A DNA stretch of 63,169 nucleotides, the filler included, from Licmophora abbreviata (Eukaryota): assembly GCA_900291995.1 (NCBI GenBank). It is 21 parts of 21 records of this genome, joined end to end, with 100 filler letters (N's around TTAATTAATTAA, not from the genome) between each part and the next. Parts side by side here need not be neighbours in the genome. Positions count along the whole stretch, not along the records: positions 38,497 to 42,144 come from OLMU01006325.1; positions 42,245 to 44,545 come from OLMU01006326.1; 19 more parts are not named here. The stretch is one strand, 5' to 3'. The notes beneath the pieces were generated by a model. The model made no database searches, was not told where the DNA came from, and saw nothing but the letters and a program-made list of their open reading frames with translations. This document shows, one piece after another, positions 19,637-62,000 of this stretch; within the stretch, counting starts at the first letter, position 1; each line of letters starts with the position of its first letter. The position numbers and the translations under genes were made by a program.

Positions 19637-19970
19637 TATACAACCCCAGCAGAGACCCGTAACTTAGCATTCACGATTACTCACATCTGAATTCGTCGCC
19701 TCTCGGCACTCGCACCTTAGTCACTTTCGACCCACTGGGGTTCTGCCTTGACGAATCTGAACCCGCCTCCGACTTATCCCCACGCCGACCTTCCGGAGCC
19801 ATCACTCCGGCCATGATCAGTGCACTCAAACAGGCGCAGCCACGGCCTCCTCCAGCGCCCGCCAACAGTCAGGGGTTTCGACGCACGACCAGCATCAAGC
19901 ACCCAGGCGCTCTCCCGCCCCGATTCACCCACAGCAAGCCTCGGTCGATCCGCCCGACACCGCACGATAG

Positions 19971-21789
19971 GCCCTCTACCATCAACTCACGGCGCCCAGG
20001 AGCGACCAACGCACAAGTCAAGCCAACACTCCCAGACCCCTCACTGGGAACGACTATTCAACCCCGCTATTGGTCCCACTCCCGCATACCCCAGGCGCAC
20101 GAACTAGCAAAACACAAGCCTTTGGTAAGAACAATCTCAATCAATCCTTTCTGACAGAAAAAATTCTCTCCCATGTGCTTCTCCCGCTCTACAAAAGTGG
20201 CTTTCTCCGCAGCAGCGACCGCGCACATCTCGCCGGTACCATCCCGGGCGCCGAGCAACTCTGGCTAGCATGGATGACCCACAAGGACACCGACTTCACT
20301 GCACTGCAATTTCCCGACCCCCACTGGGCGACACAGACCGACATCAACCGGGATCGGGTCGAACTCTTCCTCGCGTGCGCCCTCCACTATGATTTCGATA
20401 TGGCGGCAGTCTACCGCTTCGCCGGGGGCAACTACGTGGCCGCTCATCGAGACCCCGATCGAATCCTGGAAGACACATTTGGACTGATTGCCGAGGAAGA
20501 CTTCGAGCACCTCGGCCGCATACTACGGCTGGGCGCCCCTGCAAAATTTCGGGAGTACTGCACGCATGAGGAGTTCCAACTGTACCGCGACTATGGCAAC
20601 CATCCATCCCTGGAAGCCAACATCGACAAGGTTAGAAAGGCACTGGCAAAAGACGACGCGCGATGCAACGCCATATATTTACCTGGATGGGCGACAGCAT
20701 TCGTACCGGACATCATGCTCACACCCCTGGGATACGCCAATGATCGGTTGATTGTCGATTCGTCGTTCCAAGTGACTCCCGACAGCCGATCGTACAACAT
20801 GCGCACTGACAGCACAGCCGAGCCACGGATTCACTTCGGTGCAGCCTTACGGCGCTATTGGTACCAGATCTACAACCTGCGCGTCTCCTACCCCGGGGAA
20901 GAGATTCTCTTGTTCGACGACGACGTATCTGGCTGCTTCCGCCACGTGAAGTATAACCCTAACGTTATCTCCGCCAAGGCCTTCCAGGTAGACGGCTGGC
21001 TGGTAATCGCAACAGGACAGACTTTCGGCGACAGCACCAGTCCTCCCAACTGGGAACCACTGGCCCAGGCACGCATGGCAATCGCGCACGATCTGTCCCG
21101 CTCCGGCGCCCCCGTGCCGGCCTATGCTGAGTACCTGGACGCAGTCGAGTTCCCCAAGTCCGATGCCATCCCCGCAGGCACCTTCATCGCACCTGCAGCA
21201 CCCGACAGCCGCAATCCGGGAGTCATCGCCCCCGACGGGACCAGGCTTCCTACAGACTTCAACATGCATGTTGACGACAATCTCTACGCCAGCGTGGGCA
21301 CGCCCGAGCTCAAAAGGAACATGCGCGTTAGCATCGAAGCCCTGAACCGCGTCCTGGGACATCCGGAACCGCTCGCGCGCCCGAACTCAGTTGACCTGCA
21401 GAAGTTTCGCCGCGGCAATATAGGACCGACCCGCACCCAGCTGGGGTATCTCCACGACTCCCGTCGCCTCCGCGTCGGCATCCCCGAGGACAAGCGCCTC
21501 CGCGCCATTAAAAAACTCAAGCGAGATTGGGGACCACACCGGCGCTCATTCAGTCTCCTCGACGCTGCCCGGCTACTGGGGGACCTCCTTGCCCTCTGTC
21601 GTGTCTGCCCGTGGGCGATCTTCCTCTTCTGCACCCTGCACAGCGAAATCTGCAAGCTCTTAAAAACCAACAGTCGACGCATGATGCAATCTCCCGTCTT
21701 TCGGGACCTGGTCGCGGCAAGAGAAGCGGCCAGCCACGGTGGTACCCGCCATACCGCAACACTCCGCTGGTTCCACTCCAAAGTCGCCA
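19971..21789 (+). CDS. DIRS-type reverse transcriptase, partial
   Basis: DRLIVDSS, DDDVSGCFRH, GQTFGDSTSP, HVDD and LGYLHDS motifs. The frame is open from 19971 to the gap; the true start is unclear. Confidence 0.85.
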
Positions 21790-21889
21790 NNNNNNNNNNN
21801 NNNNNNNNNNNNNNNNNNNNNNNNNNNNNNNNNTTAATTAATTAANNNNNNNNNNNNNNNNNNNNNNNNNNNNNNNNNNNNNNNNNNNN

Positions 21890-22885
21890 ACGATCACGCA
21901 TCGAGTCATCAAATCGGACACCGTCAAGAAGTACCTCCGCGAGGCGGAGAAGCACGTCAGCTCGGGTCGGGAACGCCACATGCAGCTGGCACCCCCGTCC
22001 GCTCCCCGGCTTCTGTGGTCTCACCCGACCCTCGCCCTCGGCGAAAAACAACGGCACTCCAGCGTGGAAAGCGTCTTAACCGAACTTCGCCGTTTCGAGA
22101 AGCTTCCCAACAGGCGAGATCCGATGACCACCGATCTCGTCCTCCACCAACAGCAACAAGCCTCCGCGAACCACCCCCACTCTCTGGCGACGGCCTTGAG
22201 CGAATGGTTTGTCATCGGTCTGCACCTCGGACTCCGACTCCACGAGTGGGCACAGAGTCACGGTGTCCACGAGCTGTCACAAGTTTGGCACAACCCCGAC
22301 GGCACCCCGAAGGCATTCATACTCGATGATATCCGGTTCTTCGGCCCTCGGCGAAGCCGCATGACGCGTTCCGCGGCAATCGACGACCCCGCCGGCGTCC
22401 ATTCCGTCGACTTCCGCTTCCGCTACCAGAAGAACGGCGACAATGGTCAGCTCGTGATGATCGTCAAGAACCAAGCCCAACCCCATCTCTGCGGTGTCAC
22501 GGCGGCCATCCGAATCGTCACACGGGCCGTCGACCTGGTGCTCGCCCCCGACCACCCGGTCGCGATCTACACAACGGACGGCTCCCCCGACAGCGCCATA
22601 CAGTTCCTCTCCGAGGTTCATATCAAGGAGGCGCTGCAGGCAGCGGCCAAGCAGTGCTATAACATCACCGACCCGGAGGAACTCGCCCGGTATTCCTCCC
22701 ACTCGATCAGGGTTGGGGCATGCGTCGCTCTCCACGCCGCCGACCGGACACAGATGGACATCAAGCACGCTCTCCGCTGGCGATCCGACACCTTCTGGAA
22801 CTACCTGCGCCACTTGCCACGGACCGCCCAACGCGTCGCCGATGCAATCGCAAATTTCAATCCTATGAGCCTCTCGTGGGAATAG
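21890..22885 (+). CDS. Tyrosine recombinase
   Basis: IKSDTVKKYL core-binding helix; catalytic LGLRLHE (R), QKNG (K), HSIR (HxxR) and LRWRSDTFWNY (W, Y). Confidence 0.9.
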   Translation, partial: TITHRVIKSDTVKKYLREAEKHVSSGRERHMQLAPPSAPRLLWSHPTLALGEKQRHSSVESVLTELRRFEKLPNRRDPMTTDLVLHQQQQASANHPHSLATALSEWFVIGLHLGLRLHEWAQSHGVHELSQVWHNPDGTPKAFILDDIRFFGPRRSRMTRSAAIDDPAGVHSVDFRFRYQKNGDNGQLVMIVKNQAQPHLCGVTAAIRIVTRAVDLVLAPDHPVAIYTTDGSPDSAIQFLSEVHIKEALQAAAKQCYNITDPEELARYSSHSIRVGACVALHAADRTQMDIKHALRWRSDTFWNYLRHLPRTAQRVADAIANFNPMSLSWE

Positions 22886-38496: not shown

Positions 38497-39753
38497 TTGA
38501 ATCGCTTGGAAAAGGATTTTACTGAGTTGGTGGACGCGTGCGAAGGGCCGTGGAAGCGTTCGTTTGAGCTTACCTCCGAATTGACTGGAGACGGAATTCT
38601 GGCAGGACCGGCTCAGCAGCTCTATGCTCGCTTGGATGAAGCGTTTCAGAACCACCAAGGCAAGTTTGGTCATCCAGTCGGCGAGGGTGTCGCCAGTGGC
38701 CAGGCAAGGATCCCGGGCAAGGTTGAGGCCATGGTGGAGAACTCGTTGGGAATGGCAGATATCAAAGCCGAGATGGAGGAGCTTGCCAAACGAGTTGAGG
38801 AGTCCGAGACAACGATCCGGGATCTACAGGCCACGAACTCCCTTTTGTTGGAGCGGGTCAATTCCCAAGGGATTGCGTTCGGCGATTCATTCTTCTTGGG
38901 TTCTCTTGCGGAGGCTCAGTCGTGGGTAACTCTGCATGTCCCGAATTTGGAACGTCGGTTCTTTTACGATATCGTCTCCTTCATGACTCCAGTACAGAAC
39001 CTCAATCGGAACGAGTCGGACGTACTCGACGAAGAATTCAAGTCCAAGCGGGCGGATCTGGACAAGCTCACCGCCTCTTTCAGCATCGTCTTCCCTGCAT
39101 GCTTCGGGATCAAGGGTACTCCGGGGGAGCCCAACTTGCCTGCTCTGCCGAATCACGAAGCCTGGGATTCACCCGGTCGTCAGGAAGGTCTGCTACACCG
39201 GCTCCGGTCGCACTCGAGCCGCTTCAGGTCCTCCACGTTGCAGTCGATCCGGGCAACCTTCCAGGGTAAAGGGGGCGTCAAAGCGCGGGATCTTGCCGAG
39301 GAAATGGTTCGACAGACGATCGAATTTTTCGACGATATGGCGCAGTTTATCGATCAGTTCTATCGCGAATTGATCGATGTTGACTCGGTCTCGAGCAAGG
39401 ACGCTTGGGATCTGGTGGCGCACATCATCAGGGAAATCTTCAAGAAGCTGGGCACGCTTCGCTCGGTGGGAGTGGATGCCAAGGACGCAGGGTTGAGCAA
39501 GGCGGCTCGGTGCTCCATGGTCTTGTGGGGAGCCCTGTCTGCGCACCAATACATGAAAAGTTTGCGATCGTGTGAGTTCAGAGGTCACCCAGATCTTGCA
39601 CCGGCCATTCTTCTTCATGTGGTCCAGAAGAAGGCATCGTGTCAGAGGGTGGAAGCTGTGGCTCACCAGATGACCAGCTTGAAGAAAGAATTGACCAGCT
39701 GTCGGGGCGTTGCTGACCAGGCCTTGTCGGCCGCCACGAAGACCAAGAAGTGA
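38497..39753 (+). CDS. gag-like ORF1 (coiled-coil plus helical domain), 5'-truncated
   Basis: 418 open codons from the contig start to TGA 39751-39753, directly upstream of and in frame with pol. Confidence 0.7.
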   Translation: MNRLEKDFTELVDACEGPWKRSFELTSELTGDGILAGPAQQLYARLDEAFQNHQGKFGHPVGEGVASGQARIPGKVEAMVENSLGMADIKAEMEELAKRVEESETTIRDLQATNSLLLERVNSQGIAFGDSFFLGSLAEAQSWVTLHVPNLERRFFYDIVSFMTPVQNLNRNESDVLDEEFKSKRADLDKLTASFSIVFPACFGIKGTPGEPNLPALPNHEAWDSPGRQEGLLHRLRSHSSRFRSSTLQSIRATFQGKGGVKARDLAEEMVRQTIEFFDDMAQFIDQFYRELIDVDSVSSKDAWDLVAHIIREIFKKLGTLRSVGVDAKDAGLSKAARCSMVLWGALSAHQYMKSLRSCEFRGHPDLAPAILLHVVQKKASCQRVEAVAHQMTSLKKELTSCRGVADQALSAATKTKK

Positions 39754-42700
39754 CGGGGACGTCAGGTCGTCCCTCTCACATCGGACCTGGAACCTGACAT
39801 TTCCGGTGACGTGAGTCCGGTGTCGGGTTCGGAGACGAGGAAGAATCCAGACTACGCGCGCGATGGTGTTGAATCCGGAATGATTGTTGATGTGGAGCCG
39901 ATTGGGAAGATGGGGGTTTACGCCCGACGCTTCCCGTGGTCGGCCTTGCTTAACTTGAGACTGCGTGCGAGTCTGGCGTGGGTTCTTCTTGAAGAACCGT
40001 GTCTTCGGGAGGAAGTGACGAGGGCGGTGGAAGATCACGTGGAGGTGATAGTTGGAAGGGCAGGGGAGTTGGACCGCTTGCTGAGCCAGGACCCAGTGAG
40101 CATTCTAATTGTGGAAGATCACGATGCTTCACACGTGATCGAATCGACGGTGACCAACAGTCGATCCCTGCATTGCGTACTGTCGTTTCGAGGGTCAAGA
40201 AGAGCGAAGAAGTGGCTGCCAGGATGGGACTCGTTTGGAATGCGGGTGCGACACGCCGACGTTGGAGGGGTTACTGACGGGTCCTGGGAGACTCGGGTAT
40301 GGATAATGCGTTCGGCTAAGACGAGGAAGGCAGAGTCGAGTGTGACCGCACCACCGATTCCAGCTCGAAGGCCCTCTCAAGACTTGCGTTCGATCTTGAA
40401 GTTTGGCCTCGAGGGTCGCAGGTGCAAACCTCCTTGTGGAGCCACGCCGTTGGGGTCGAGTCAAGTCGAGTGGGGACCAGGTGGGAGACGGACAGTGTGG
40501 AGCTGGGGACTGTGGCCCGTGTGGTCCAGAGCGTCGTTGATCCGAGTCCAACACTTTGGTAGCTCATGGATAGAAAGACCGTTTTCTTTGTCAGAGCGTT
40601 TGCTTTCTATGGACGTCCCGGAGTCTCTTTTCTTAGGGGCCTCAGAAGAGTCCCGAAGTTTACTGCTGAGTTCGATCAAGGTTCCACAGAAGATACGGCA
40701 GAGTGTGTTCGAATCCATCTCAGAGTGGGTGTGGGGTTCGAGACGTACTGCTCTCGGGAAGCGAAAAACGTACTCGGAGTCTCAGGAGTCATTACCCTTG
40801 CTCCAACGGCGGCAGAAGACTCCCAGGCTGTCCCCCCCGGCGGTGGACCGTCCGATGAAAGGGGTGGCGAGTACAAAGGAGGTCCCAGACAGAGGGGAGG
40901 GCACGATCCAAGAGCGGACCGCGGTGTGCGATGGCGCGGGAAACCGGGATCAATGTCCACCCAGTGATTGTGACCTTAAGTCACTCCCTGAACACGATCG
41001 AAACGCTAAGGCCGTCAAGCACGACAAAGCTCCCGTCCCGGTTTGGCTGTGGGACGACAAGTTGGCAGAAGGACTGTCCACCAAGGTCCGGGAGCGGAAT
41101 CATGTGGGAGCGCGAGATGCGCTTCGGGGGTGGCTCTTGTCCGCGTGGAGGCGACGGATCCTCAAGTCGTACTTTGCCTGGAGGAAGAGTGTTTCTCCGG
41201 TGGAGGATTCGGAGAGGAAGAAGAACGACGAGGCCGCTCGGGATGTCATTCGGAGGGCTGCTGGCGCTTCTTGGTGGGGATGGGATGCAGGCTCTCGTCC
41301 CATATTTTGGAGGTGGCCTTCAGCGTACATGACTACTATACGCGATGGTCTTTCATTGTGGCTTCAGAGCTCTCTCAAGCCGTGGACCAAGCGGCAGCGA
41401 CTCCCGGCGAGTCGAGACACCCTGACCAAGGTGGTCGAGAAGCTGAAGACCGTCCGCGAAAGAGGATATGTCGAATCGGGCGAAGTGGTTTCTCTCATCT
41501 CCTTTTTTGACGTGCCGAAAGGAGAGCAGGACATCCGCATGGTGTACGACGGGACGAAGAGCGGGTTAAATGCGGCACTGTGGGCACCTTGGTTTCCTCT
41601 CCCCACTGTTCAGTCGATGCTCCGGGCCCTGGAGCCTGGGACGTTTCAGGCGGACAACGATGTGGGAGAGATGTTCTTGAATTTCATGCTGGATGAGAAA
41701 ATCCGAAGGCTGTGCGGGATTGACATTACGAAGTTCTTCCCAGGGGAAACGTTTTCCACCGCTGAAGTCTTGTGGGAACGCTGGTGTCGATGCGCCATGG
41801 GACTTCGACCGTCACCATATCAGGCAGTGCAAGGAATGCTATGGGCAGAGGTTTCTATTCTGGGCAACCGTTGGGACCTCGATATTGTTTTCCGTTGGAG
41901 TCGAGTTCGCCTTAACTTGCCAGGCAGTGAGACCTACGATCCTCGGAAGCCGTGGGTCTCTAAGGTTAGGGAAGACGACACTTTGGCCGCCGATTATTTT
42001 ACTTTTGTGGACGATCAGCGGACCACAGCTCCCTCCGACTGGGACGCGTGGCTAGCCTCTCAGCGGGTATCTTCTGTACTGGGTTGGTTAGGGATTCAGG
42101 ACGCCCCCAGAAAGCGGAGAGGTGGGTCCCTTGAACCTGGTGCCNNNNNNNNNNNNNNNNNNNNNNNNNNNNNNNNNNNNNNNNNNNNTTAATTAATTAA
42201 NNNNNNNNNNNNNNNNNNNNNNNNNNNNNNNNNNNNNNNNNNNNGTTCGTCTTCGACGCTTGGAGATGCGTGGGGACTTCGTCCTTCGTTTGGTACACGT
42301 CTCCGGAACTCGGATGATCGCTCAAGGAACAGATGGGTTGTCCCGAGGTGACCATGGGGCGGGGGTGATGGCGGGAAAGCCCTTTTCTACGTACATTCCA
42401 CTTCACCTGTCGGCCTTGGATCGATCTCCCGAATTGGATACCTGGGTCAGGTCCTGGTCGGGTGAGGACCTGATGGTGCTGAGTAGTGAGCAGTGGTTTG
42501 AGCCTCTCCCGGCGCGGGGAAAGCATTTGTGGTTGCCCGCCCCAGGAGCGGCTTCTGTGGCTGTGGAGCGCATGGCTCGCTCTATTCATAGAGACGCCTC
42601 GTCGCTACATATTTTCGTGGTGCCCAGACTCATGACGGCGTGGTGGCGGAAGACTCTTCAAAAGGCGGCGGACCTCGTCTTTTCAATTCCTTGTACCGGC

Positions 42701-42955
42701 TCCTCGCTGTGGAGCCTCGAACAGCATGAACCTCTCATTGTTGGAATTTGTTTCCCTCTCATCTCCCACAGACCCTGGAGACTTCGAGCCACCCGCCTCA
42801 TGGACGACGCTGAAGGGAAACTGCGAGAAATGTCGAAGAACCATCTCGTGGTCCCAAGGAATTTTCTGCGGAAATTACTCGGCCAAGCGAGAAGGCTGGA
42901 TGCCATGCCGGAAGGCGTGGTGTGGGAACTGTTACGACGTAGAGATGTGTCCTGA
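39754..42955 (+). CDS. pol: degenerate C5-methyltransferase-like domain, RT, RNase H, Dam-like domain (spans spacer 42145-42244)
   Basis: RT FDVPKG..DIRMVYDGT, DVGEMFLNF, MGLRPSPY, FVDD; RNase H tail VHVSGTRMIAQGTDGLSRG; Dam-like HLWLPAP..IFVVPRLMTAWW. Confidence 0.88.
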
Positions 42956-44276
42956 CTTCCCTATTCGGCGCCCTACGGATGAGGAGGGAAACGATCTTGA
43001 TCTTGTGGAGGACAGCGAGCGATTCGTTGTCGCACGTGCCGGGGACAATTTGTGCTGTCAGTTTCAGTGTGATTTGTGTCACTTTCGGAACATCCAACGT
43101 CGTAATCCGATTCCGACGAGTAGCAGGGATTCCCTTCTTCTCTCGTGCGTTCGGCGAGCTAATCTTGACGCGTTCTGGTCGCGGGAGCCGGGAACTGTCT
43201 CGAGTACCCGGAGTCAGACCCGGCTTTTGTTGAAAAAGAGTAGTGTTCTGGGCATTGAGGAACCGCTCCCTTCTCTTGGTCCCCACCCGGTAAAGGATGT
43301 TGTTGGGATGCGAGTCGCCTGCGCCACTCTGGTGCGGACTTTGGATCCCGGAAAGAATGAGGCCACCATTCAATTTGAGACGGCTCGGAAATTGCGGAGC
43401 GGATTTTCGAATGTTTGGCATGCCTCTGTTGAAGGGACGGGGGTTGCGGTGATGGCTCGAGAGACAACAAAGCTTTTTCACACGTCGTGTCCCACATTTA
43501 CTGATTGGTATGAGCGCTTCAACTTAGGCATGCACAAAAGAATGGGTGACAAGAGTATTCCAGATTTGGCCATCTCCATTGAGGTAATGCGAGAATTGAT
43601 GGACAGATTCGAACAAAAGTGGGAAGATGCGGATGGTGACAGGATGGCCCAATCACGTGTGTTATTCCCGGCGTTGTTTTCTGTTGTCTCGTTCTGCGGA
43701 GGACTGCGTGGGGAAGAGACGCCACTTGCTGACCTCGCAGGAATCCGGAGGCACTTGGACGAAAGCGGGCGCAACGCCGAGCAGCCTCATGTGGTAGTGG
43801 CTCTCTTGGGTCGCTTCAAGGGAGAAACAGGGGAGATGTATCATCTCTTGCCTCTGGCGGCTGAGTCAGCCTCGGGTTTAAAGCCCAGAGTGTGGGTTGA
43901 AAGGATGGTGGCATGGTACCAGAAGGACGGAGTGGTTGATGGCCCTGTGTTTCGACGAGGTCCGAAGCGGAGAGGCAGAGCTAGTGACTACGAAGTGGAG
44001 GTGTTGGATGTTTTGTGCAGTATTCAAGAAGGAGGCGATGCTATCAGTGAGCAAGTAGACGTCCGAGATGAATACGGTATGAGTCGGTCGTTTCGGCGAG
44101 GATCCACGACTCAAGCAGTGAATCAAGGTTTGGAAGAATCGGACATCGAAAGGAACAATCGATGGTCCAAGGTGGAACGGGCAAAGGGAAGAAAGCCCAC
44201 GTTTCGCATGATACAGCATTACACGGAAGTCAAACAAAATTTGAGAGCTTTACTCAAGTACTCAAGAGCTCTCTAG
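42726..44276 (+). CDS. Tyrosine recombinase with Cys-rich N-terminus
   Basis: GLRGEE (R), GRFKGE (K), SRSFRRG (variant HxxR), NRW and QHY. Overlaps the end of pol by up to 230 nt in another frame. Confidence 0.85.
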   Translation: MNLSLLEFVSLSSPTDPGDFEPPASWTTLKGNCEKCRRTISWSQGIFCGNYSAKREGWMPCRKAWCGNCYDVEMCPDFPIRRPTDEEGNDLDLVEDSERFVVARAGDNLCCQFQCDLCHFRNIQRRNPIPTSSRDSLLLSCVRRANLDAFWSREPGTVSSTRSQTRLLLKKSSVLGIEEPLPSLGPHPVKDVVGMRVACATLVRTLDPGKNEATIQFETARKLRSGFSNVWHASVEGTGVAVMARETTKLFHTSCPTFTDWYERFNLGMHKRMGDKSIPDLAISIEVMRELMDRFEQKWEDADGDRMAQSRVLFPALFSVVSFCGGLRGEETPLADLAGIRRHLDESGRNAEQPHVVVALLGRFKGETGEMYHLLPLAAESASGLKPRVWVERMVAWYQKDGVVDGPVFRRGPKRRGRASDYEVEVLDVLCSIQEGGDAISEQVDVRDEYGMSRSFRRGSTTQAVNQGLEESDIERNNRWSKVERAKGRKPTFRMIQHYTEVKQNLRALLKYSRAL

Positions 44277-44677: not shown

Positions 44678-47600
44678 TTACCACTTCAGAAGTGCCTGTC
44701 GATGTTTAAGAAACAAGTTCTGCGGTAGTGGCTTGGTGAACATGTCTGCAATTTGTTCTGCAGTATCGATAGGGTAAATGCTAATCAATCCTTTCCTCAC
44801 GTAGTCCTTGAAGTGATGATAGATAAGGTTGATGTGTTTGGTGCGTGGTCGCATCTTGGGTAGTCTTGCTAGTTCTAGCGCTCCAGAGTTGTCTTCAAAT
44901 GCCTTGCAATGGACCGTCGTAGTTGTTGAAAGGATGTCGTGTCCGTATTTGCGAAGTTCTTTGACGAGTTCCATTAGAGGAATCGCGTTGCGTAGACTCT
45001 CTGATAGACTAATATATTCAGCTTCGGTAGTGCTGAGAGCAATCTGCGTTTGTAGTCTTGATGCCCAGAGTATAGGACAACCAGCGTAGGTAATGGTAAA
45101 TCCTGATCGTGATTTGGCTGTGCTGGAATCATTCGGTGCGGTAGTTCTATTCCAGTTTCCTGCGAAGTCAGCGTCCGCATAAACTTCTAGGCTTTTGTGC
45201 TTGCTAGGGTCGATGATCAGTCCTTGGTCGCGCGTGTCGCGCAGATACTTGCAAAGCCAAGTGATTGCTTCACCATGTGATTTCTTGGGGTCTTCACAAA
45301 ATCTGGCGATCTGGTGTGTCGCGTAGGAGATGTCTGGTCTGACGCTCTTCTCTAGGAAGTTGAGCTTGCCTACGACTCCGCGGTAGTGGAATCTGTTGTC
45401 GAAGCTGGGTTCACTGTTTGAGCGGTGCAGAATTTTGACTGCTGATGGCGTTTGTTTTCCTGTTGATCGCTTCGGCAAGTTGACCATGTCGATGATCTGA
45501 TCGATGAGATGCGGTTGCGTTAGCTTGAGTCGTCCGTCTTGGAGTGTCTCTACATTGACGCCGAGGTAGTCTTCGATCGTCCCTTGATCGTCTACATCAC
45601 AGCCTTGTCGTTTGATGTCGTTGATGGCTTTGTCGATGTCATTGCTGTCAGGTCCGGCGAAAATTCCATCATCAACGTATACGACGAAGATAACGTTGTC
45701 TCGGTAGTAGAGGCATTCGTCAATCTCGCTTTGAATGAAACCAATCTTCGTGAGGATGGTGTGTAGATGCTGGTTCCAGACTCTTCCTGCAGATCGATTG
45801 CCGTAAAGGTTCTTGAGGAGCTTGAGAACGTGAGTTTTACCGTTCCCATACTTTGTTTCGATGCCGTGGGGCAACTCCATGTAATGTTCGAACTCAATGT
45901 CGGCCTGTGGGTATGCTAAGACGAAGTCAATCTGTCTCGTGTGCCACTTGTGGAGGATCGAGAGGATCAGGATGCATCGAATGGTCATCCATGTAACGAC
46001 AGGTGCGTACGTCTCGAAGTAGTTGACTGCGAACTCTTGTTTGCCTCCGTGAAGGTTCAGGCGTGCTTTGTGCTTGTAAACCTGTCTCGTTTTGATGTCT
46101 CGTTTGCGTTTCATAGACCAGACGGCTGGGAGCACCTTTACGTCTGCAGGTACGTCCTCTCGTTTGACTAGTATCCAATGCTTTCTTTCGATGTGGTCGT
46201 TCACCTCTTTGACTGCTGCTTCGATGAATTGTTCTCGGTCAGGTTCACGCATGGCTTGATGAAAGTACATGGTGTCTTGATTGTTGGCAGTCATGAAAGA
46301 TACTGGTTCGAGCATTTGGTCTTGAATACGATAGTCTTCTTCATGCATGGCTTCGTAGTACTCGTCGTGAGCTTGATAAGAAACGAGGCCTGCTTGTCTT
46401 TGCGCTTGACTTTCACTCATCCTGTTCGTTTGTCGTACGGTTCTTCCTGATCGCGTTGTCACTGGCTGGTCGATGGGAGTAAGCTCTGTGGGCGGCTCTT
46501 CCATAGCTACGTCTGTAGTTCCTTGAGGATTGTCAGGTATTGTTTCCGTCACGGGGATGTGTGGTTTGTCGCTTTGAGGATCTCTGTCTTGAGACTCCCT
46601 CTGATCGTGTGATCTTCTCTCTTCGTGTCCGTCGAATATGTTGATACGGTCGGATTTCAGGTTTGGTTTGATGCCTGAGAGCGTCTGCCACTGTGAGAAT
46701 GTCTTCGGATTGCCTGCTGTAGGTCGGACTGTTTCAAAGAAGTCGTCGTATTGTAAGTGAAACTGTGGTGATACGAGTCCTGTTTCGAGATTCAAGACTA
46801 ACGAAACTGTGCCTGCGTGTCTTGTCGATGGACCGAGGTTGATACCAAGGCGTGAGCGTGAGTCCCACTTGGGAATTGCCTTGTTTCCTTGCAGCGAATT
46901 GTTGAGTGCAAATACTGGGCAACCGAAGGTGTGATGTGCCTTTAGATTTGGGGCGACTTCGACGGATGAGAATCTTTCGAGCGCGGAGCTTCCGTCGGAT
47001 TTGTCTGGCAGTTGGTTGCGTATCTCGTTCGAGTATCGCAATGCGCTTGGCCAGAGCTGTAGTTCAATGGCGGATGGCCATCGGGCTTTCGAGTGTAGCA
47101 AGTTCTTTCTCGCTTGTTCTTGGAGATCTCGTATTCGCTTTTCGGCTATCCCGTTTTGGAAATGTGCGTTGACTCCGCAGAAGGATATCGTCTGTCCTTG
47201 TAATTCGATGTCTCGCAGGTAAGCGTTGTCTGCGAAGCGCCCGTTGTCCGCGTGATAATGTCGAACTCTGACATGATGTCGCCTTGCGTATGCTTCGAAA
47301 GCATGCTTGGCTTGCAGAGTTTCTTCGGATGATAGAGACTTTTGCATGTGTACGTAACTCAGGCCGCTGAAGTGATCCACGAAAACGGTTGCCGCGGAGT
47401 ATCGAGCCTTGGTGAGTCTTCCTTTGAGTTGTGGTACAAATCCCGGTGTCGTGCTGATGAGCTGATCAACTGAGACACATTCGCCGGGGCGTTCGACTTT
47501 GATGATTTGTCGTTTATTTTCTTTTCCTTTCGTCCTCCATGGGCGTTTGGTCATGGCTCCATACATGCAGGATGCACACTTTGGCGTCTGTACTCGTGAT

Positions 47601-48838
47601 AACCGTCGAGGTAGAATGTTGAGTGCTGCCAGGAGTTGTATGTGTTTGAAGGATCGATGGCCGAGTCGGTAGTGCCATCTGAGAAGTTCGGCTTGGTCGT
47701 TAGTTGCCGATACTTGTTCGTCGGTTGGAATCAAGTGTGTTGGTTCTGGGACCTGAGTGCGGACTGAAGAGTGCGTGAGATCTTTCAAGTTTTCCTCGTA
47801 TTCGTCGATCGGTTGGAAGATAAGAGGGTCCGTTTCTCTGCCAGGTAATTCGGTAGTTTCCTGGTGGTGAGCTGTTTCGTCGCTATCCGGTGGAATAATG
47901 TGGGTCTCGTATGCTATGTGTTCGTGGGTCTCCACGTCGTTTGCTGAGTCGATGACGGCGGCATAGACTCGATAGTCGATAGCATCGGTGGCTGAGTAAA
48001 AGCGAGCTGTGTTTGTTGCTGGGTCCCAAGGTATCGTTCGTTTGTATTTTCTTTGATCCCATATGAGCTCACACTTGTCGGCGTAGTTTATGCTCAGCGT
48101 ACCGTCCACGGTAGGGTAATTGTCGTTTGCTTGCTTGCTCCATTGTTGAGGACATAGTAAGCAGATTGGTGATTCTGGTACGTATAATACGTTGTGTATT
48201 TGTATCGTGTGTACACGTCCATTGTCGTCTTCTAACCTCCATTTTACCGTTCCTGTTCCTTGGACGTTGACGACGTTTCCTCCAAATCCGCGGACTTGCA
48301 TGTCGCAGGATCGTATTGGCCCTTGGAAGTGTCGCTTGTTGTTGGAGATTGTCCTTGATGAGTGATTGTCAACTCCAATCAGAAAGGAATCGGTGTCGAA
48401 TCGGCAGATCGTTGGTCGGTTGAAGATGTTGTTCGACTTGTTGGTTGCGCCTTCGGTAGAGTTATACGCAACGTAGTTTGCTCGGTGAGTGACGGTGTAT
48501 CGCATTCGTTTGAAAGCAATGCGTCTTGGAGTTCGTTTGCTCCTGTTGGTTATGTATCGTTTGCAATAACCGGATCGTTTGTTTTGTTTGTATGGTTTTG
48601 GTTTCTTTTTCAACAGTTGTTCAATCGGAATATTGGAGGTGATCCAGTCTCCCAATGTCATTATTGCTGAAAACATGCGCAATGGTAGTTCGAAACCGGC
48701 GAGTGCGGCTATTCCCATGGTGATCACGATGGGAGCGGTAGCCTTAGCCACGATCGCTATTAGAAATGCTGCCATGAAGAGCGTCACCGCAAGGCTTGTC
48801 GCTTGCATCGTCTGGGCGAACACTCTCGTCAGCAGTAG
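44678..48838 (-). CDS. Copia C pol (intact), in frame with gag behind a single UGA
   Basis: Protease IGVDNHSS; WHYRLGH..CASC; integrase VSVDQ, HADNG, QNGIAE; RT YVDD; RNase H YADADFAG, STTEAEY, EDNSGA, ADMFTK. Confidence 0.95.
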   Translation of the reverse strand, partial: LLLTRVFAQTMQATSLAVTLFMAAFLIAIVAKATAPIVITMGIAALAGFELPLRMFSAIMTLGDWITSNIPIEQLLKKKPKPYKQNKRSGYCKRYITNRSKRTPRRIAFKRMRYTVTHRANYVAYNSTEGATNKSNNIFNRPTICRFDTDSFLIGVDNHSSRTISNNKRHFQGPIRSCDMQVRGFGGNVVNVQGTGTVKWRLEDDNGRVHTIQIHNVLYVPESPICLLCPQQWSKQANDNYPTVDGTLSINYADKCELIWDQRKYKRTIPWDPATNTARFYSATDAIDYRVYAAVIDSANDVETHEHIAYETHIIPPDSDETAHHQETTELPGRETDPLIFQPIDEYEENLKDLTHSSVRTQVPEPTHLIPTDEQVSATNDQAELLRWHYRLGHRSFKHIQLLAALNILPRRLSRVQTPKCASCMYGAMTKRPWRTKGKENKRQIIKVERPGECVSVDQLISTTPGFVPQLKGRLTKARYSAATVFVDHFSGLSYVHMQKSLSSEETLQAKHAFEAYARRHHVRVRHYHADNGRFADNAYLRDIELQGQTISFCGVNAHFQNGIAEKRIRDLQEQARKNLLHSKARWPSAIELQLWPSALRYSNEIRNQLPDKSDGSSALERFSSVEVAPNLKAHHTFGCPVFALNNSLQGNKAIPKWDSRSRLGINLGPSTRHAGTVSLVLNLETGLVSPQFHLQYDDFFETVRPTAGNPKTFSQWQTLSGIKPNLKSDRINIFDGHEERRSHDQRESQDRDPQSDKPHIPVTETIPDNPQGTTDVAMEEPPTELTPIDQPVTTRSGRTVRQTNRMSESQAQRQAGLVSYQAHDEYYEAMHEEDYRIQDQMLEPVSFMTANNQDTMYFHQAMREPDREQFIEAAVKEVNDHIERKHWILVKREDVPADVKVLPAVWSMKRKRDIKTRQVYKHKARLNLHGGKQEFAVNYFETYAPVVTWMTIRCILILSILHKWHTRQIDFVLAYPQADIEFEHYMELPHGIETKYGNGKTHVLKLLKNLYGNRSAGRVWNQHLHTILTKIGFIQSEIDECLYYRDNVIFVVYVDDGIFAGPDSNDIDKAINDIKRQGCDVDDQGTIEDYLGVNVETLQDGRLKLTQPHLIDQIIDMVNLPKRSTGKQTPSAVKILHRSNSEPSFDNRFHYRGVVGKLNFLEKSVRPDISYATHQIARFCEDPKKSHGEAITWLCKYLRDTRDQGLIIDPSKHKSLEVYADADFAGNWNRTTAPNDSSTAKSRSGFTITYAGCPILWASRLQTQIALSTTEAEYISLSESLRNAIPLMELVKELRKYGHDILSTTTTVHCKAFEDNSGALELARLPKMRPRTKHINLIYHHFKDYVRKGLISIYPIDTAEQIADMFTKPLPQNLFLKHRQALLKW

Positions 48839-50327
48839 TCATTCCTGTTGAATCTCTTCGAGAATGGTGGTGAGTGCGTTTGAAAAGCTTGTTTTCTTGC
48901 TTCCCATTGTCTCACTTTTGTCACCTTCGTCTGTTTTCTGTCTCTGGCGGTTACGACATCCGTTGGGGCCGTCGCCTTCTGGTTCATGAAGAACCCAAAC
49001 TGGAGTGGAGTGATAGGTGCACCAGTAGTAGTCTTTTCCGTCGACATGTTTCACGAAATAACTGTGTCCGTTCACGGTGGTCTTGGTGTCTCCGTCTTTG
49101 GGTGCTTTGAGTTTCCAGGCATATTTTGCGTCTTTGTTCTTCTTGCCGCTGGTCTTCTTCCCTTTCTTCTTATCTAATCCTGAGCTGGCGTTGGAGCTGT
49201 TGGAACTTTTGTAGTTGGAAGACTTGGTTCCGACTTGAGAGATAGCCTTGGAAAGTTTCAGGTTACTGTCCTTGATGGTCCTTAGTTCGGCTGACATGGC
49301 GACGATTTTCTCTTGATCGGCGGTGAGTGCTCCCCATTCTTTGTCGCGAGTGAGATTCGTGTACTTGTTAAGAGCGAGTTCCATGAGCCTCTCAATCGTC
49401 ATGTTGTCTCCGTCGTCGTACTTAGTTTTGTGATCTTTGATGTACTTGACGAATTCGGAGTCTCCGGCAGCGAGGTATCCGCGGAAGAGGTTGATCATGA
49501 GGTCGTCGCAGTTTTCTCCTCGAGCGGTAAGTCCGTCGCGATTTAGTTTGACGTACTTGTTGAACTCTTCGACGTTGCTGTTGATGCTTGACATGTAGGT
49601 GTCTAGACTCGATAGGTTCTCTCGGAGGTAGTTGGTGGTCGATCGTGTGTCGACGATGGCTTTCTGTGTCAACATCTTGAAAAGGATCGGTCCTGCCTCG
49701 GCTCCATTACGTGTGTAGAGCTCGGCTTCAGCGAGGATCTTGATGCGTGCGTCGTCGGTAAGTGATTGTGCAATGCACTTAAACATCTGAACCGCGTTCT
49801 GGGCTTGTCTGTTCTGTCCTTGGATGTATTCGTCCACGTGGGATTGCACGTTTTCAAGAGTCAATCTTCCATATTCTTCGAGAAGGTTCCTTGGGTTTCC
49901 AAGAGAGTCCTGGATCGTGAGAATGTTGCCTGTTCCAGCTGCCCATCCTGATTCGGTCGCGCGTTGCGTGAGTGATTCGCAGAACTGCTTGACGCCTTGA
50001 GAATCCGCGTTGAATGTAGTCGGCAGCTTTTTCGGTAGCGGCATTCCACAACTTGAGTCCTTGTGCTGTTCCATAGTCGATGAAACGGTCAGGACGGTGT
50101 TGACCTGGGGTCAGTGCGAAGACTGGAGCGGTTGGTGGTGCGTTAGCGCCAACGTTGGGGGGTCCAGGTGGTCCAGGTGGAGGTCCTTGTCCTGGTTCCC
50201 TTCCGTCGCTACTACCGGTACTTCCAGGTGAGGAAGGTGGTGAGCGAGCTGCGGCGGCGTAGGTTGCCGTGGTACGAGTCCTGGCGGTAGAGGCTCGAGT
50301 GGTAGCTGGAGTCGTTCCAGTGTTCAT
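48839..50327 (-). CDS. Copia C gag, with a 1-nt frameshift in an A5 run (50028-50032)
   Basis: Removing one A joins FALTPG..LKLWNAATEK to LPTTFNADSQ. C-terminal WCTYH..WVLH..C (CHHC) knuckle; ends GAA TGA. Confidence 0.8.
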
Positions 50328-51235
50328 CTTTGCGCAGAGGAAGCGTNNNNNNNNNNNNNNNNNNNNNNNNNNNNNNNNNNNNNNNNNNNNTTAATTAATT
50401 AANNNNNNNNNNNNNNNNNNNNNNNNNNNNNNNNNNNNNNNNNNNNAGTTTATCAGACCCAAACGTTAGGGATTAGTGAATGACCCTCGTTTTGGAAAAG
50501 AGAAGACCAGGGACGCGTTGCGCCTGGCAGGTGATTTCCTTCTTGTTGTTAGACGCGGTGATCGAAGCGCGTTCTACACGGTGGGGTTGCACGACGGTTA
50601 TGATAGCGGTGTAACGGAGCGACGCCTAACGTCCTGTTTCGATCCAGGAAAGTGGTTACTCGATAGGAAGATCCCTGGTGATCTCATCGGGTGTCTGCGG
50701 GATGCATAGGGTTCAAGTTTACGGGGACTTTCCCGCCAAACATGTGATGGTTCGCCAAGATTTGATGGCGCGGTTCGCATGGGAAATGACTGTGCATCCT
50801 GATGGCTCGGCCGCCGTCATGGTCATGGACCATGGCGACCGGCAGGGCAGGGCAAAGCAGCGCCGATCGCATGTCTGTTCGTCACACTACGTTGCAGCAG
50901 GAACACGTCGGTAGCGCGTGGCAATTGCGATTGTTGAAGCTGTCAGCAGCGCGATTTGCTGAGTTGTCGATGTATGAGCATCGGTCATTACCATTGAGTT
51001 TCCATTCCCTACGTCATACTGCTTTCATTGTCCCAGAGTGACCGGGAGGTCTATCTGTTTTCTTAGGAAGTCATTGAGATGCTTCATGATCCTGTGCTTA
51101 CGTTTTCATGCTTGCGTTGTATGCCACATCATTTGTGTTTGTGCGTGGCCATTTCCGAACTTGTTTGTTGTCTCACTTTTCTGGACTTTGTGATCGAGAA
51201 TCGTTGATTTGTTTTCAAGTTATCCACAAGCAACC

Positions 51236-52708
51236 ATGGCTGAAGCTATTACCTTTCGTAACGCGTTGACTCGTTGTGGCATCTTGCAGGGTGCCGCGTT
51301 GGATGTATTCCCTGAGCAGGGATTCACCAACATGGCGGAGTTCTCGCAGCTGACTGAGACCGAGATTGAGAGCTTCGTTCGTGCGGTGAACAAGATGCCG
51401 GTCGCGAGGATCCCTTTCGGATCGATCAAGAAGTTGAAGGCGATGCGTAACTGGGCGATCGAGAAGAATCGATTCGGGTTGCCGATCGACCATAACGAGT
51501 TCACCGGCGACGAGCTCAGTCGCATGGTCGTCAGGTTGGACTTTGAAGTTCATCTCGCGGTCAACAAACCGAAGACGCCCGACTTGCCGGAAAAGTTCGT
51601 TTCTTTCGGAACCAAGTGGCGGGCTTTCAGCGAAGGGTTCTCCGGCCATTGTAACGTGGCTCGCGGTTGTATGAACATCCCGCTTTCGTATGTGTTGCGT
51701 GATCATGTCGTTGTCACCGATGAGATTCGTGCGGTGGTGTATGGCACTTCGGATGCGCGTTTGATGGATTGTGTTCGTCTTGAAGGTGACGAGTTTGATC
51801 AAGACAACAATCGTGTGTGGGATTTGTTGCGCCCTTTGGTTTATGACACCGCGGCGTGGAACTACGTGAAGCAGTATGACAAGACAAAAGACGGACGCAA
51901 GGCTTTCCGTGCCTTGGTTCTTCGTGGGGATGGAGAGGCCGCGAAGGAAGCGCGTCGCGCTCGTGCGGAAGACATCATTGCGAAGGCATCGTTCACGGGT
52001 TCCAGTAAGCGTTTCACTTTGCAGTCGTACATCAACATTCTTCAGGGCGCGTTTACCGAGTTGGCTGAGTGTGGAGAGGAGGAAGAGTATTCGGAGAGGA
52101 AGAAGGTGTCCGTGTTCTTGAAAGGTCTTGTCGCCGATCGTTTCAAGGTGACGCGCCAGTTGATCTTGCAGAACCCGACCCTTCGTGATGACTTTCAGAA
52201 GGCTTATGCATTCTGCGAAACGGCGAATCAACTCAACCAACCTTTAGGCTCAGGCTCGGATGCGGTGGGTGGCCGGAACGTGTCGGAGATGGAGCGCTCC
52301 TCGGGCAAGGGAAAGGGCAAGGCTAGTCGTTACCTGCCTAAAGAGGAGTGGTTTGCTTTGTCGAAGAAAGAACGTGGGGCTATCATCGCAGCGCGTAAGA
52401 CCGGAAAGACTGGAGGTGGATCGGGTGCTTCGAGCGGGGATGGTAGTAAGCCGAAGGTCCATTCGTCCAAGCGCAAGCTTGCCGAGTTAGCTTCGACTGT
52501 CGCCAAGATGCTCGATGGATCGGAAACTGGCGGAACTGAGGCTTCCACTGATGGCTCAAAGGATGATGGTGGAAACAGCAGTAAGAAAACGGCAGGGACA
52601 GGTACGCAGGATGGCAATCCCGCAAATCAGTTCGGCCGCAACGTGCACGCGGTGATGCGCAAGTTTGCGAACGCCGTGCAGGAAGAGTTGGGCGGGAATA
52701 ACGAATGA
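51236..52708 (+). CDS. Copia A gag
   Basis: ATG in ACCATGG context; IPLSYVLR, DNNRVWDLL, KDGRKAF, KKVSVFLKGL and ANQFGR are all paralleled in Copia B gag. Confidence 0.85.
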   Translation: MAEAITFRNALTRCGILQGAALDVFPEQGFTNMAEFSQLTETEIESFVRAVNKMPVARIPFGSIKKLKAMRNWAIEKNRFGLPIDHNEFTGDELSRMVVRLDFEVHLAVNKPKTPDLPEKFVSFGTKWRAFSEGFSGHCNVARGCMNIPLSYVLRDHVVVTDEIRAVVYGTSDARLMDCVRLEGDEFDQDNNRVWDLLRPLVYDTAAWNYVKQYDKTKDGRKAFRALVLRGDGEAAKEARRARAEDIIAKASFTGSSKRFTLQSYINILQGAFTELAECGEEEEYSERKKVSVFLKGLVADRFKVTRQLILQNPTLRDDFQKAYAFCETANQLNQPLGSGSDAVGGRNVSEMERSSGKGKGKASRYLPKEEWFALSKKERGAIIAARKTGKTGGGSGASSGDGSKPKVHSSKRKLAELASTVAKMLDGSETGGTEASTDGSKDDGGNSSKKTAGTGTQDGNPANQFGRNVHAVMRKFANAVQEELGGNNE

Positions 52709-55700
52709 CCCGCGGCAGCTTTGTCTCGTACGCCACAGAAACGTGTGTCGTTCTCTGTTGCGCGTGGGGACACGGTATTTTACATACAAGAGTTGAACGG
52801 ATCGAGTCCGGCCCAGCGGTTCGAACTGGACTCGCATGCCGATACAACTGTTGGCGGAAGTAATTGTGTGTGTCTTGCCACTACAGGCGAAACAGTAACA
52901 GTCCATTCGTTCTCGAGCGAAAGGAAGCCTTTCTCGGAGATCCCTGTCGCGTCGGTTGCGACATCTTGGGTGGATCCCCGAACAGGAGAGACGATCGTGT
53001 TGGTATTTCATGAGGCTCTTTATTTTGGTGATCGGCTCGATCACTCACTTATTTGTCCCAATCAACTGCGTTCGTTCGGCGTCACTGTTGCTGACACTCC
53101 CCGTCAGTTTGATTCTTCGTCCTCTCACTCCATTCACAGACGTGATGCAGAGGTTGACGTAGAGATTCCTTTAGAATTGGATGGTGTGATCTCTGGTTTT
53201 GTCTGCCACCGCCCTACCACAGAGGAGTTGGAAACTTGTCGGCGCGTTGCTTTGACAAGCGATGCCTCTTGGGACCCCAAGGACGTTAATTTTGCGGCCC
53301 AGGAAGATGCTGTTCATCATCGATCAATCTCTGGAGTTCTCCAGAACGGGGACAGATCTCATATTATGGAGCCTCCTGAGTTGCTAGATGAAAACACGTT
53401 TGGAGCGAGGCTGGTTTCCGCCGTTAATGTTGCATCAGATGATTTGAGTGGGGATGGGATGTCGGGCTACAGTGATAGAGACTTGTTCTTACGATCCGAG
53501 GAACGGCGACAGTTGTCGGCTTTGTCTTCAAACGACAAACGGTCGGTGGTAACGAAGGAGGTCTTGGCTAGGAGATGGGGGATTGGTATGGGCACGGCTC
53601 ACCGAACCCTGCGCGTGACGACTCAGCGGGGGGTGAGGACTTTCTTGCACCCGACGGATCGGCGCGTTAGAACCATCCAGCCGCACCTCGTATTTCCCAC
53701 GATGCGGGGAAAGAAGATGTACACCGATACGATGTTTGCGAAGGCGAGGTCGGTACGGTCTTATACGTGTGCCCAGGATTGGTCGGATGGAAACGGGTTC
53801 ACCCTGCTTTATCCGATGAAGAGCAAGGCCGAGGCACCGACTACCATTTCCAGGATGATTCATGATTTGCAAGGGATACCGGAGGTGATCGTGAGTGACG
53901 GCGCAAGGGAGGAGACCAGTGACCAAGTGGAAGTCGGAGGTTCGGCTCTTTAGGGCCAAGTCTCATGTGACAGAGCCTTACTCACAGTGGCAGAACAGGG
54001 CGGAGGCAGACATCAACCAGGTAAAGCGTGGGATCAAACGTGCAACTAAACAGAGTGGCTCACCCAAGCGTTTATGGTGTTTCTGCGGCGAATGGGTTGC
54101 GGCGATTCGGCGGAAGACGGCCCATGACTTCGCAGCTCTCGATGGATTGACTCCGGAGGAGGCGATCTTTGCTCGGCAGGTTGATATTTCGGCGTATGTA
54201 CAGTTTGACTGGTACGAGCCGGTGTGGTACATCGACCCGGCGGAAGGGGCTGCGGAGTCACGTCGGAAGCTTGGTCGTTGGATCGGAGTCGCAGAACACC
54301 AGGGTGCGCCGATGACGTACATGATCCTACCGAAGTCGTGTATTCCGATTGCTCGGAGTTCGGTGTTCCCGGTGAACGGGGACGAACAGATGTCTGATGA
54401 GTATCGAAGAGAGTTGGAGTCGCTTGACAATGCCATCCGGCAGCGGATTGGAGATGACGTCGGCGACGAGGATGTCGATTTCGAGATCGACGGAATCCCT
54501 GAGATACCAGACGACTTGTTCGAAGAATCGGTCGGCGCTAATTGGGAGCCGGCTGACGGTGAAGAGCGGATGCCCGAGGCGGATGAACAATATTCTCCTG
54601 AGTCGTTTGATCAGTACCTGACCGCGTCGGTAATGATGGACAGGGGAGGGGAGCTCATGCGGGGCACTGTGAAGGGCAGGAAGCGGGACGTAGAGGGGAA
54701 TCCGGTCGGGAGATCAAACAGCAACCCTCTTCTCGATAGTCGAGAGTACGAGGTAGAGTTCCCGGACGGCTCGCTCGACGTATTCACCGCTAACACTATT
54801 GCCGAAGCTCTGTATTCACAGGTGGACGAAGAGGGGCGGCATTATGCCGTCCTCTCCGAGATCATCGACCATAGGAAGGACGGGAATGCGCTTGCCGCCG
54901 ACGACGCGTTCATCGAAGGCACGCATCACCGTCGAAGGACCACCAAGGGTTGGCAGCTTCTTGTCAATTGGAAGGATGGGACCTCCGATTGGCTGCCTCT
55001 GGCAGAGATCAAGGAGTCCTACCCGGTCCAAGTCGCGGAGTACGCCGTGAACAACAAGGTTGCGTCTGAGCCCGCCTTTGCATGGTGGGTCCCGCACGTC
55101 TTAAGGAAGCGCGACCGTATCATCAAGAAGGTGAAGTCGCGTTACTGGAAACGTACCCACAAGTTCGGAATCGAGGTCCCCAAGACAATACAGGAAGCAT
55201 TCAATATAGACCGCTCTACCGGTACGGACTTCTGGAGGAAGGCCTACGAGAAGGAGATGCGGAATATCAAGATTGCTTTTGACGTTCGGGAGGATGGCAA
55301 GGTTCCGGTGGGCTACAAGGAGATTAGGTGTCACTTGATATTCGATATCAAGTCGGATACTTTTGATCGCAAGGTCAGGTTCGTGGCCGGTGGTCACTTA
55401 ACCGACCCACCTAAGGAATCGACTTACTCGAGCGTTGTCTCAAGGGACAGCGTTCGGCTGTTCTTTCTCATTGCCGCACTGAACGACCTGGATGTGCTCT
55501 CGTGTGATGTGCAGAATGCTTACATTAACGCAGAGACGAAGGAGAGGGTTTGGTTCAGGGGCGGGGACGAGATGGGACCGAATAAGGGCAAGGTGATCGT
55601 GATCGTGCGAGCGCTCTACGGTTTAAAATCGTCAGGAGCTTGCTTCCGGCGGCTGATGGCATCGACGCTTCAGAGTCTCGGGTTTTCTAGTTGCAAGGCT

Positions 55701-56088
55701 GACCCCGATTTGTGGATGCGGAAGGCGATGAAGCCGGATGGGACCAAAGTGTATGAATATGTACTCTGCTATGTAGATGACCTGATCTTTCAGGGTTTGA
55801 AGCCCGACGATTTCATGGGTCTGCTGCGGAAGAAAGGATTCACTCTCAAGGATGGTTCTGTCAAGGTGCCGGACCGTTATCTTGGGGCCGACATTGCGAT
55901 GAAAGAGCTGGCCGATGGAAGTAAGGCGTGGTCTTTGTCGTCGGATACGTATGTGAAGCGAGCCGTTGCGGAAGTCGAGCGTGAGCTCGAGAAGGTAGGG
56001 CAGCAGCTCAAGAAGAAGGTTCGATCTCCGTTGGCGTCTGGGTATCGACCTGAGTTGGACAGTACGCCGGAGCTCGATGAGAAACGCG
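52709..56088 (+). CDS. Copia A pol (protease, integrase, RT), one frameshift near 53920
   Basis: ELDSHADT; YTDTMF, VSDGA, QNRAE; RT DVQNAY, ALYGLKSSG, YVDD. The frame changes between EETSD and KWKSEV, inside the integrase core. Confidence 0.9.
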
Positions 56089-61523: not shown

Positions 61524-62000
61524 GATATTGCGTATTTGCGTCTTCGCGCAAAATTATGTGGCATAAAACTCCGGCTGTCATCGCCTAAATAAGAATGAGC
61601 GAGCGTCCGAGTCGGACAGCTCTAACGATTTTTCAATGGTCATAATCGTAAACCCATATAAATTGTACCTGCGTCACTTCTGCAGGTGCCCCATAACCAA
61701 TGGTCTTTATTGGTTGCTGTTTAGTGCATTCGTGCCGGCTCGCTCTCTTTTAGCGAGTATTGGCATCGCCCGACAAACTTCTTCCCGGGTGCGAGAAAGT
61801 GTTTAGCGTCAAGACGACGATGGGCTGGTACCGGTGCCCCGCGATCCCCATGTGCACCATGGGGCGATCGCCATCACGCGAATGGGTCTGATAAACTCAG
61901 NNNNNNNNNNNNNNNNNNNNNNNNNNNNNNNNNNNNNNNNNNNNTTAATTAATTAANNNNNNNNNNNNNNNNNNNNNNNNNNNNNNNNNNNNNNNNNNNN

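Follow-up and report, generated by a model that had tools for sequence, protein, structure and literature searches.

The window analysed here is a stretch of 63,169 nucleotides from the genome of Licmophora abbreviata (GenBank assembly GCA_900291995.1), in which contigs are joined by 100-base spacers and which is rich in transposable elements. One of these is a retrotransposon that encodes a tyrosine recombinase (YR), and whose first open reading frame (ORF1) is followed in the same frame by pol, with a single TGA between them (Table 1). The contig at 42245-44545 carries the C terminus of pol and an overlapping YR ORF, and from full-length homologues we infer that it forms one element with the contig at 38497-42144; the relative phase of pol and YR is fixed in 56 of 57 elements. 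The initial annotation had described the element as DIRS-like and its ORF1 stop as a candidate for readthrough into pol. The stop lies where it was placed and is in frame with pol, and the element belongs to the DIRS order of YR retrotransposons.

Table 1. Features of the YR retrotransposon and its ORF1/pol junction, in window coordinates
Feature	Position	Strand	Remarks
ORF1	38497..39753	+	3' 418 codons; Gag-like by position only; 5' end cut off by contig edge/spacer
In-frame TGA, then CGG GGA	39751..39753	+	Candidate readthrough site; equivalent stop in 28/37 elements
pol ORF	39754..42144	+	Same frame as ORF1; 797 codons without stop; runs to next spacer
Linker, stop to first ATG	39754..39879	+	42 codons; coding constraint in pol frame; predicted disordered
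Hairpin GGGACG/CGUCCC (stem 1 of proposed pseudoknot)	39756..39773	+	Minimum free energy (MFE) structure; starts at nt +3 after stop
Stem CAGGUC/GACCUG	39763..39789	+	Starts at nt +10; MFE structure if folding begins at nt +8
7-bp pairing GUCAGGU/ACCUGAC	39761..39798	+	Not conserved in paralogues
pol N-terminal domain, predicted cytosine-5 DNA methyltransferase fold without Pro-Cys catalytic motif	39883..40740	+	AlphaFold and Foldseek
Divergent reverse transcriptase domain	41200..42144	+	Runs into assembly spacer; ESM Atlas match
pol C-terminal part: presumed RNase H end and conserved 200-amino-acid domain	42245..42955	+	On next contig
Candidate splice acceptor for YR ORF: branch-point-like motif, pyrimidine tract, CAG	42732..42771	+	
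YR ORF with N-terminal Cys-rich region	42636..44276	+	Overlaps pol end, +1 frame

Relatives were collected with the reverse transcriptase (RT) region as query, which gave 387 proteins, and with an ORF1 profile, which gave 3532 clusters at 50% identity. The named homologues come from diatoms (Cylindrotheca fusiformis and Conticribra weissflogii), which makes a diatom host likely, and no relatives were found in the viral contig and genome contig collections searched. A metagenome scan confirmed 175 loci, of which the best 80 were kept, and ORF1 ends and pol starts were placed by profile hidden Markov models (HMMs) in all three forward frames, phase not being used. Both sides of the junction were present in 37 elements (32 of the 80 loci and five from the L. 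abbreviata genome itself); the remaining 48 loci lacked one side or one HMM match.

ORF1 and pol are in phase in 34 of these 37 elements (binomial p 1e-13, the rows not being independent), and in 28 of the 37 a single in-frame ORF1 stop directly abuts pol. Since L046 and L047 are duplicates, statistics on abutting junctions use 27 rows, of which about 2.8 would be expected to be in phase and free of stops if the linker were unselected. When the ORF1s are clustered at 40% identity, 21 of the 26 clusters contain an abutting member (the median ORF1 identity is 20%), and the abutting layout occurs in all five subfamilies of the L. abbreviata genome that have a junction. Linker length varies widely among elements, yet in the abutting set the linker is always open and in frame. 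The initial annotation had allowed that the phase of ORF1 and pol might prove random among relatives; it is not, which supports readthrough. Because most of the distant relatives keep the in-phase abutting layout, occasional readthrough of the stop is the most likely explanation, and we assign programmed stop-codon readthrough at the ORF1/pol junction a probability of roughly 0.78.

Other readings of the junction were rejected. The stop is conserved across the family, so that a nonsense mutation in some dead element does not explain it. Reassignment of UGA in the host does not fit pol ORFs of more than 1200 codons that contain no UGA and often end in TGA, and frameshifting at the junction does not fit phase 0.

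The identity of the abutting stop is strongly biased: among the 28 elements it is TGA in 24, TAG in four and TAA in none. TAA is thus found at 0 of 27 junctions, against 24 of 45 YR ends (p 8e-7) and 16 of 57 pol ends (p 0.002) of the same loci, these controls not being de-duplicated. The next base is biased as well, with C after TGA at 12 of 23 junctions versus 10 of 45 controls (p 0.016) and G after TAG at 4 of 4 versus 2 of 17 (p 0.0025), and positions +4 to +16 after the stop are rich in G (46% versus 30%). Close relatives alternate between TGA and TAG-G (L034 and L047; L097 and L100), as seen in a quick family tree with long branches that was used for close pairs only. Recoding of the stop itself, by A-to-I editing that turns UGA or UAG into a codon for Trp, or by its reading as selenocysteine, would also need the frame to be kept, and a single edit converts TGA or TAG and not TAA, which fits all 28 stops. 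However, selenocysteine is excluded for the family by the existence of TAG versions, the bias at the +4 base fits a termination context, and diatoms are not known to have ADAR, which counts against editing; we regard recoding of either kind as extremely improbable. The UGA-C and UAG-G junctions match the Type II (UGA-CGG or UGA-CUA) and Type III (UAG-G) contexts of known readthrough sites (PMC3159437). At the window's own stop the context is exactly UGA-CGG, as noted in the initial annotation and as in the Type II sites of alphavirus, tobravirus, furovirus and coltivirus (PMC3159437). It is not the signal of the family, unlike those sites: CGG follows UGA at two and CUA at one of the 27 junctions, three in all, and UGA-C is the commonest family context (12/27), the signal shared by the family being UGA-C and UAG-G.

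Judged from its substitutions, the linker upstream of the first ATG evolves as protein, in the pol frame. Over its first 15 codons the window differs from its paralogue L002 by four synonymous changes and one non-synonymous change, and from its paralogue L015 by nine synonymous and five non-synonymous changes; third codon positions account for 13 of 22 differences.

The family visibly carries splice signals. A Met precedes the first conserved Cys in only 26 of 53 YR ORFs, and in 52 of 53 elements the first AG after the H-E-P motif of pol, or the branch-like motif, lies in phase 1 for YR, a position partly favoured by the pol peptide. As scored with a donor matrix, 16 of the 19 complete ORF1s have a phase-1 donor within their first 300 nt, compared with 14 of 111 control windows. 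A spliced RNA that joins early ORF1 to YR over about 6 kb, bypassing the stop, is therefore predicted for the family, the window's own donor being lost at the contig edge. A YR donor inside pol was considered and rejected, as no phase-1 GT column is conserved there and the linker that follows the methyltransferase-fold domain shows no enrichment. Given such signals, pol too might be translated from spliced RNA, from an early ORF1 donor or by way of an intron across the stop. Yet no GT is conserved near the ORF1 stop (at best 7 of 27 at any offset), and the linkers offer no acceptor: 3 of the 27, the window's not among them, have a phase-1 score as high as the weakest tenth of YR acceptors, and the best phase-1 score in the window is -8.7 against a YR median of 7.3. 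Splicing, moreover, would not need an in-frame leaky stop, and we find it very improbable as the source of pol. That YR has such signals while pol has none serves as an internal control and speaks for readthrough.

The initial annotation had also proposed RNA structures downstream of the stop as stimulators of readthrough. The pairings it listed are correct (GTCAGGT at 39761-39767 with ACCTGAC at 39792-39798; CAGGTC at 39763-39768 with GACCTG at 39784-39789) but do not exceed chance. The 7-bp GUCAGGU/ACCUGAC stem does not hold up: at least two pairs are broken in each of the two paralogues, and 168 of 1000 dinucleotide shuffles contain a perfect helix of 7 bp. The MFE structure contains the hairpin of GGGACG (39756-39761) and CGTCCC (39768-39773), and the z score of the window's fold is -2.0 over 60 nt, -1.1 over 141 nt and 0.0 over 147 nt. 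This hairpin was taken as stem 1 of a pseudoknot like that of murine leukaemia virus (MuLV), with CAGGU/ACCUG as the second stem. Such an H-type geometry of 6+5 bp is plausible, arising in 44 of 1000 dinucleotide shuffles, and three of the 26 other junctions have a similar one, compared with 6 of 268 control windows (p 0.04). Across three paralogues 30 of 33 cells of the pseudoknot are paired (14 of 15 in the CAGGU/ACCUG core, where the only changes are of the G-U type), and stem 1 is kept in L002. Against this, two of the six stem 1 pairs are broken in L015, no compensatory change is seen in stem 1 or in the pseudoknot as a whole, and its pairs are conserved because the encoded peptide is conserved there. 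The geometry is absent from 23 of 27 junctions, and present in one of the four UAG-G relatives. Furthermore, stem 1 begins at nt +3, where it would lie inside the ribosome while the stop is decoded, and not after an 8-nt spacer as in MuLV; known readthrough stimulators start after a spacer of 7-12 nt (PMC3159437). Readthrough that specifically requires this pseudoknot, a sub-case of readthrough in general, is thus unlikely. The stem CAGGUC/GACCUG at nt +10 is the best remaining candidate for a local stimulator, unproven as it is. Over the family the stems after the stop are lineage-specific, with no covariation, and no conserved 10-12 bp stem past a 7-12 nt spacer was found, a further difference from the Type II sites.

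Several observations weigh against readthrough. To begin with, nine of the 37 elements do not abut, three being out of phase and six having extra in-frame stops. In four of the nine (L036, L078, L075 and L090) pol is also broken, and L048, whose close relatives abut, has eight consecutive G immediately past the stop and is off phase by one base. L102 is in phase but has two extra TGA codons, and like L079 it either seems a real exception or is unexplained. In the AT-rich L079 (3719-3949) ORF1 ends in TAA, two further stops follow and pol is intact; pol may be expressed there by another strategy. In L087 and L092 a single frame runs through ORF1, TGA, a 323-codon ORF, a second TGA and pol. A fused ORF1-Pol protein was found among none of the 150 best ORF1 matches and none of 130 pol matches, so that nothing shows a fusion to be tolerated; a search for long ORF1 proteins with a four-sequence alignment as query, a weak search, gave no match, and a search for long pol gave ten proteins, none with ORF1 and one of them a gene model of pol plus YR. 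The RNA structure signal around the 27 junctions is weak: the mean z score is -0.92 from nt +1 to +70 and -0.74 from nt +8 to +77, but likewise -0.74 just upstream of the stop (+0.3 to -0.5 elsewhere), and a test for long-range pairing across the junctions was not significant (p 0.2). Finally, a Met precedes the pol domain match in 13 of 27 elements, and of the two in-frame ATGs after the window's stop (39880 and 39910) the first is kept in both of the own-genome paralogues aligned, L002 and L015, and sits where the folded pol domain begins in the predicted model. An internal start is therefore feasible in this subfamily.

These last points bear on the possibility that pol is translated alone, whether through a promoter within the element, through re-initiation or at a non-AUG start, with the common frame as a relic of a fused gene. 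Non-AUG starts are compatible with the sequence, and the comparable gag-UGA-pol junction of Tca2, when assayed alone in yeast, gave no readthrough and hid a minor promoter (PMC2194720). The conserved downstream ATG suggested as a pol start in the initial annotation is thus borne out among the paralogues and not family-wide: in 14 of 27 elements the first Met lies beyond the start of the conserved pol domain match, in five there is none until at least 45 codons into the domain, and the Met at 39880 in the window is preceded by the family-wide GVxxG motif. Were pol translated separately, moreover, there would be no reason to expect a linker that varies in length yet stays open and in frame among lineages of 20% identity, nor the absence of TAA, nor the synonymous-biased change upstream of the ATG. 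We consider it unlikely.

As to the proteins themselves, the N-terminal domain of pol was modelled by AlphaFold with a pLDDT of 80.9, and its best Foldseek match is M.HhaI (E 1.1e-9, TM 0.63). The family alignment of this domain has invariant HxxxGG and RxLxxxE motifs and no conserved Pro-Cys column, and on the strength of the model pol is predicted to begin with a cytosine-methyltransferase fold without the catalytic motif. Runs of at least six G occur just after this domain in L029, L040, L063 and others, and several copies change frame nearby, through either assembly error or slippage. The RT is assigned by its ESM Atlas match (score 0.95) to a cluster of which 40% of the members carry RVT_1 and by weak Pfam RVT_1 matches in two homologues (E 0.015 and 0.18), a PDB profile search having been blank and Pfam giving nothing meaningful on the window's four ORFs; a YxDD-type motif in the pol alignment is presumably the RT motif. 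The YR, blank in Pfam and PDB HMM searches, is assigned by an ESM Atlas match (0.96) to a cluster with Phage_integrase (PF00589) on 44% of its members, and its alignment has conserved R, K and R and residues of a Tyr region that we take to be the tyrosine recombinase motif. DAS, REL and TDN motifs seen by eye in homologues presumably mark RNase H, most of which falls in the window's assembly gap. The conserved 200-amino-acid domain after it, at the end of pol, contains a WxPPP motif and, with no Pfam, PHROG or PDB match, seems to us by eye to resemble the MT (N6-adenine methyltransferase-like) domain of DIRS. ORF1 has no Pfam match; its core (C-terminal 296 amino acids) is confidently modelled as all-helical and has no Foldseek match, only generic coiled-coil matches with Z of at most 6, which does not in itself make it a new fold.

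We propose that on the unspliced RNA most ribosomes would terminate at the ORF1 UGA and release ORF1, and that a minority would insert an amino acid and continue, giving an ORF1-Pol fusion at a low, fixed ratio with the methyltransferase-fold domain, RT, RNase H and the MT-like domain. The signal for readthrough would probably be mostly local, consisting of a leaky stop (UGA, often UGA-C, or UAG-G) and A-rich codons upstream, with a downstream part that would be G-rich, modestly structured and different between lineages, not one conserved pseudoknot. The YR would probably be made separately, from a short first piece of ORF1 spliced to the acceptor in the pol/YR overlap. We see about an even chance that a broader picture holds, in which thousands of YR retrotransposons associated with diatoms form a clade as yet without a name and make three proteins from one transcript, a retrovirus-like plan undescribed for the order. 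There, termination would give ORF1; readthrough, with free switching between UGA-C and UAG-G and, in one subfamily, acting in succession at the two stops that flank a 323-codon insert, would give an ORF1-Pol led by a disabled cytosine-methyltransferase domain; an intron of about 6 kb would join early ORF1 to the recombinase; and convergence of diatom Copia elements on UGA-C would point to a host ribosome permissive at UGA-C. The subfamily with the insert comprises L087, L092 and L084, in which two in-frame TGA codons bound a charged ORF of 323 codons (L087:1748-2722 and L092:3679-4653); double readthrough is possible there, to judge from the reading frames.

Inverted terminal repeats and an internal complementary region mark Dirs1-like elements, and split direct repeats (A1-B1-A2-B2) mark PAT-like and Ngaro elements; an N6-adenine MT-like domain ends pol in PAT-like but not in Ngaro elements. 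Inverted repeats of at least 25 nt were found in none of nine out of ten long loci, the tenth (L050) having two pairs, and element ends are not resolved in the assemblies or in the window. In L100 a 300-nt repeat directly follows YR and recurs 836 nt further on, and L025, L023, L035 and L055 overlap themselves directly at their termini, in some cases by an assembler word; no direct repeats were found in L048, L092, L043 and L085. Where seen, the repeats look direct rather than inverted. On its sequence features the element appears nearest to PAT-like or Ngaro elements, the group not being settled because the repeats are unresolved and the MT-like C terminus is seen only by eye. It resembles those groups (PMC4157794, PMC3783388, PMC7192593) in having ORF1, a pol with RT and presumed RNase H and an overlapping YR ORF, and in apparently direct rather than inverted repeats where repeats are seen. 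It differs from them in that ORF1 and pol share one frame with one apparently leaky stop, pol starts with a predicted C5-methyltransferase fold, and RT and YR have diverged beyond recognition by Pfam. SymbioDIRS-Dnmt3 of Symbiodinium (PMC5890265), also a YR retrotransposon, likewise has a cytosine-methyltransferase domain within Pol, whereas the domain found here is N-terminal, best fits bacterial and Dnmt2-type folds and lacks the Pro-Cys motif.

Gammaretroviruses are already known to use readthrough and Copia elements to have gag-stop-pol layouts, and the mechanism itself is a known one. The gag-UAG-pol junction of MuLV (Type III; PMC3159437, PMC8310308) is similar in that a structural gene and an RT gene lie in frame, and four relatives have UAG-G; unlike MuLV, the window has UGA-C, its proposed pseudoknot is not conserved and has no 8-nt spacer, and the element is a YR element and no retrovirus. 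The Copia element Tca2 of Candida albicans (PMC2194720) shares the in-frame UGA between a gag gene and pol and a predicted downstream pseudoknot, but is an LTR (long terminal repeat)/DDE element; the failure of its junction to direct readthrough by itself is a caution for the present case. In the open full-text library searched, which takes in neither Repbase reports nor subscription reviews, where an earlier description may exist, no account of readthrough in a YR element was found. The setting of protein ratios in YR retrotransposons has been little studied, and a family-wide leaky stop, if true, adds stop-codon readthrough to their order and provides many natural, independently evolved readthrough contexts from which termination rules could be learned in genetically tractable diatoms. 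These elements are mis-annotated because gene callers set arbitrary pol starts and Pfam misses RT and YR.

Diatom LTR elements have been described with at most one stop or frameshift between gag and pol (PMC2806351). Among the Copia loci of the L. abbreviata genome, L109, L111 and L113 have TGA-C in frame before pol, and three further loci are open to the contig end; this gag-TGA-C-pol layout in the same genome is counted in favour of readthrough in the YR element.

The window itself also holds Copia elements. In one, at 44678-50110 (- strand), a gag-like ORF ends in TGA-CTA at 48839-48841, a textbook Type II context, in frame with a pol of 1386 codons that starts with a hydrophobic stretch. 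Two Copia-type elements, at 51194-56088 (+ strand; junction at 52706-52708) and at 60012-61553 (- strand), also have gag and pol in one frame across a TGA-C. Fragments of another, distinct YR retrotransposon lie at 18318-22885 (+ strand), with RT-like and recombinase-like ORFs recognised by eye and no Pfam match.

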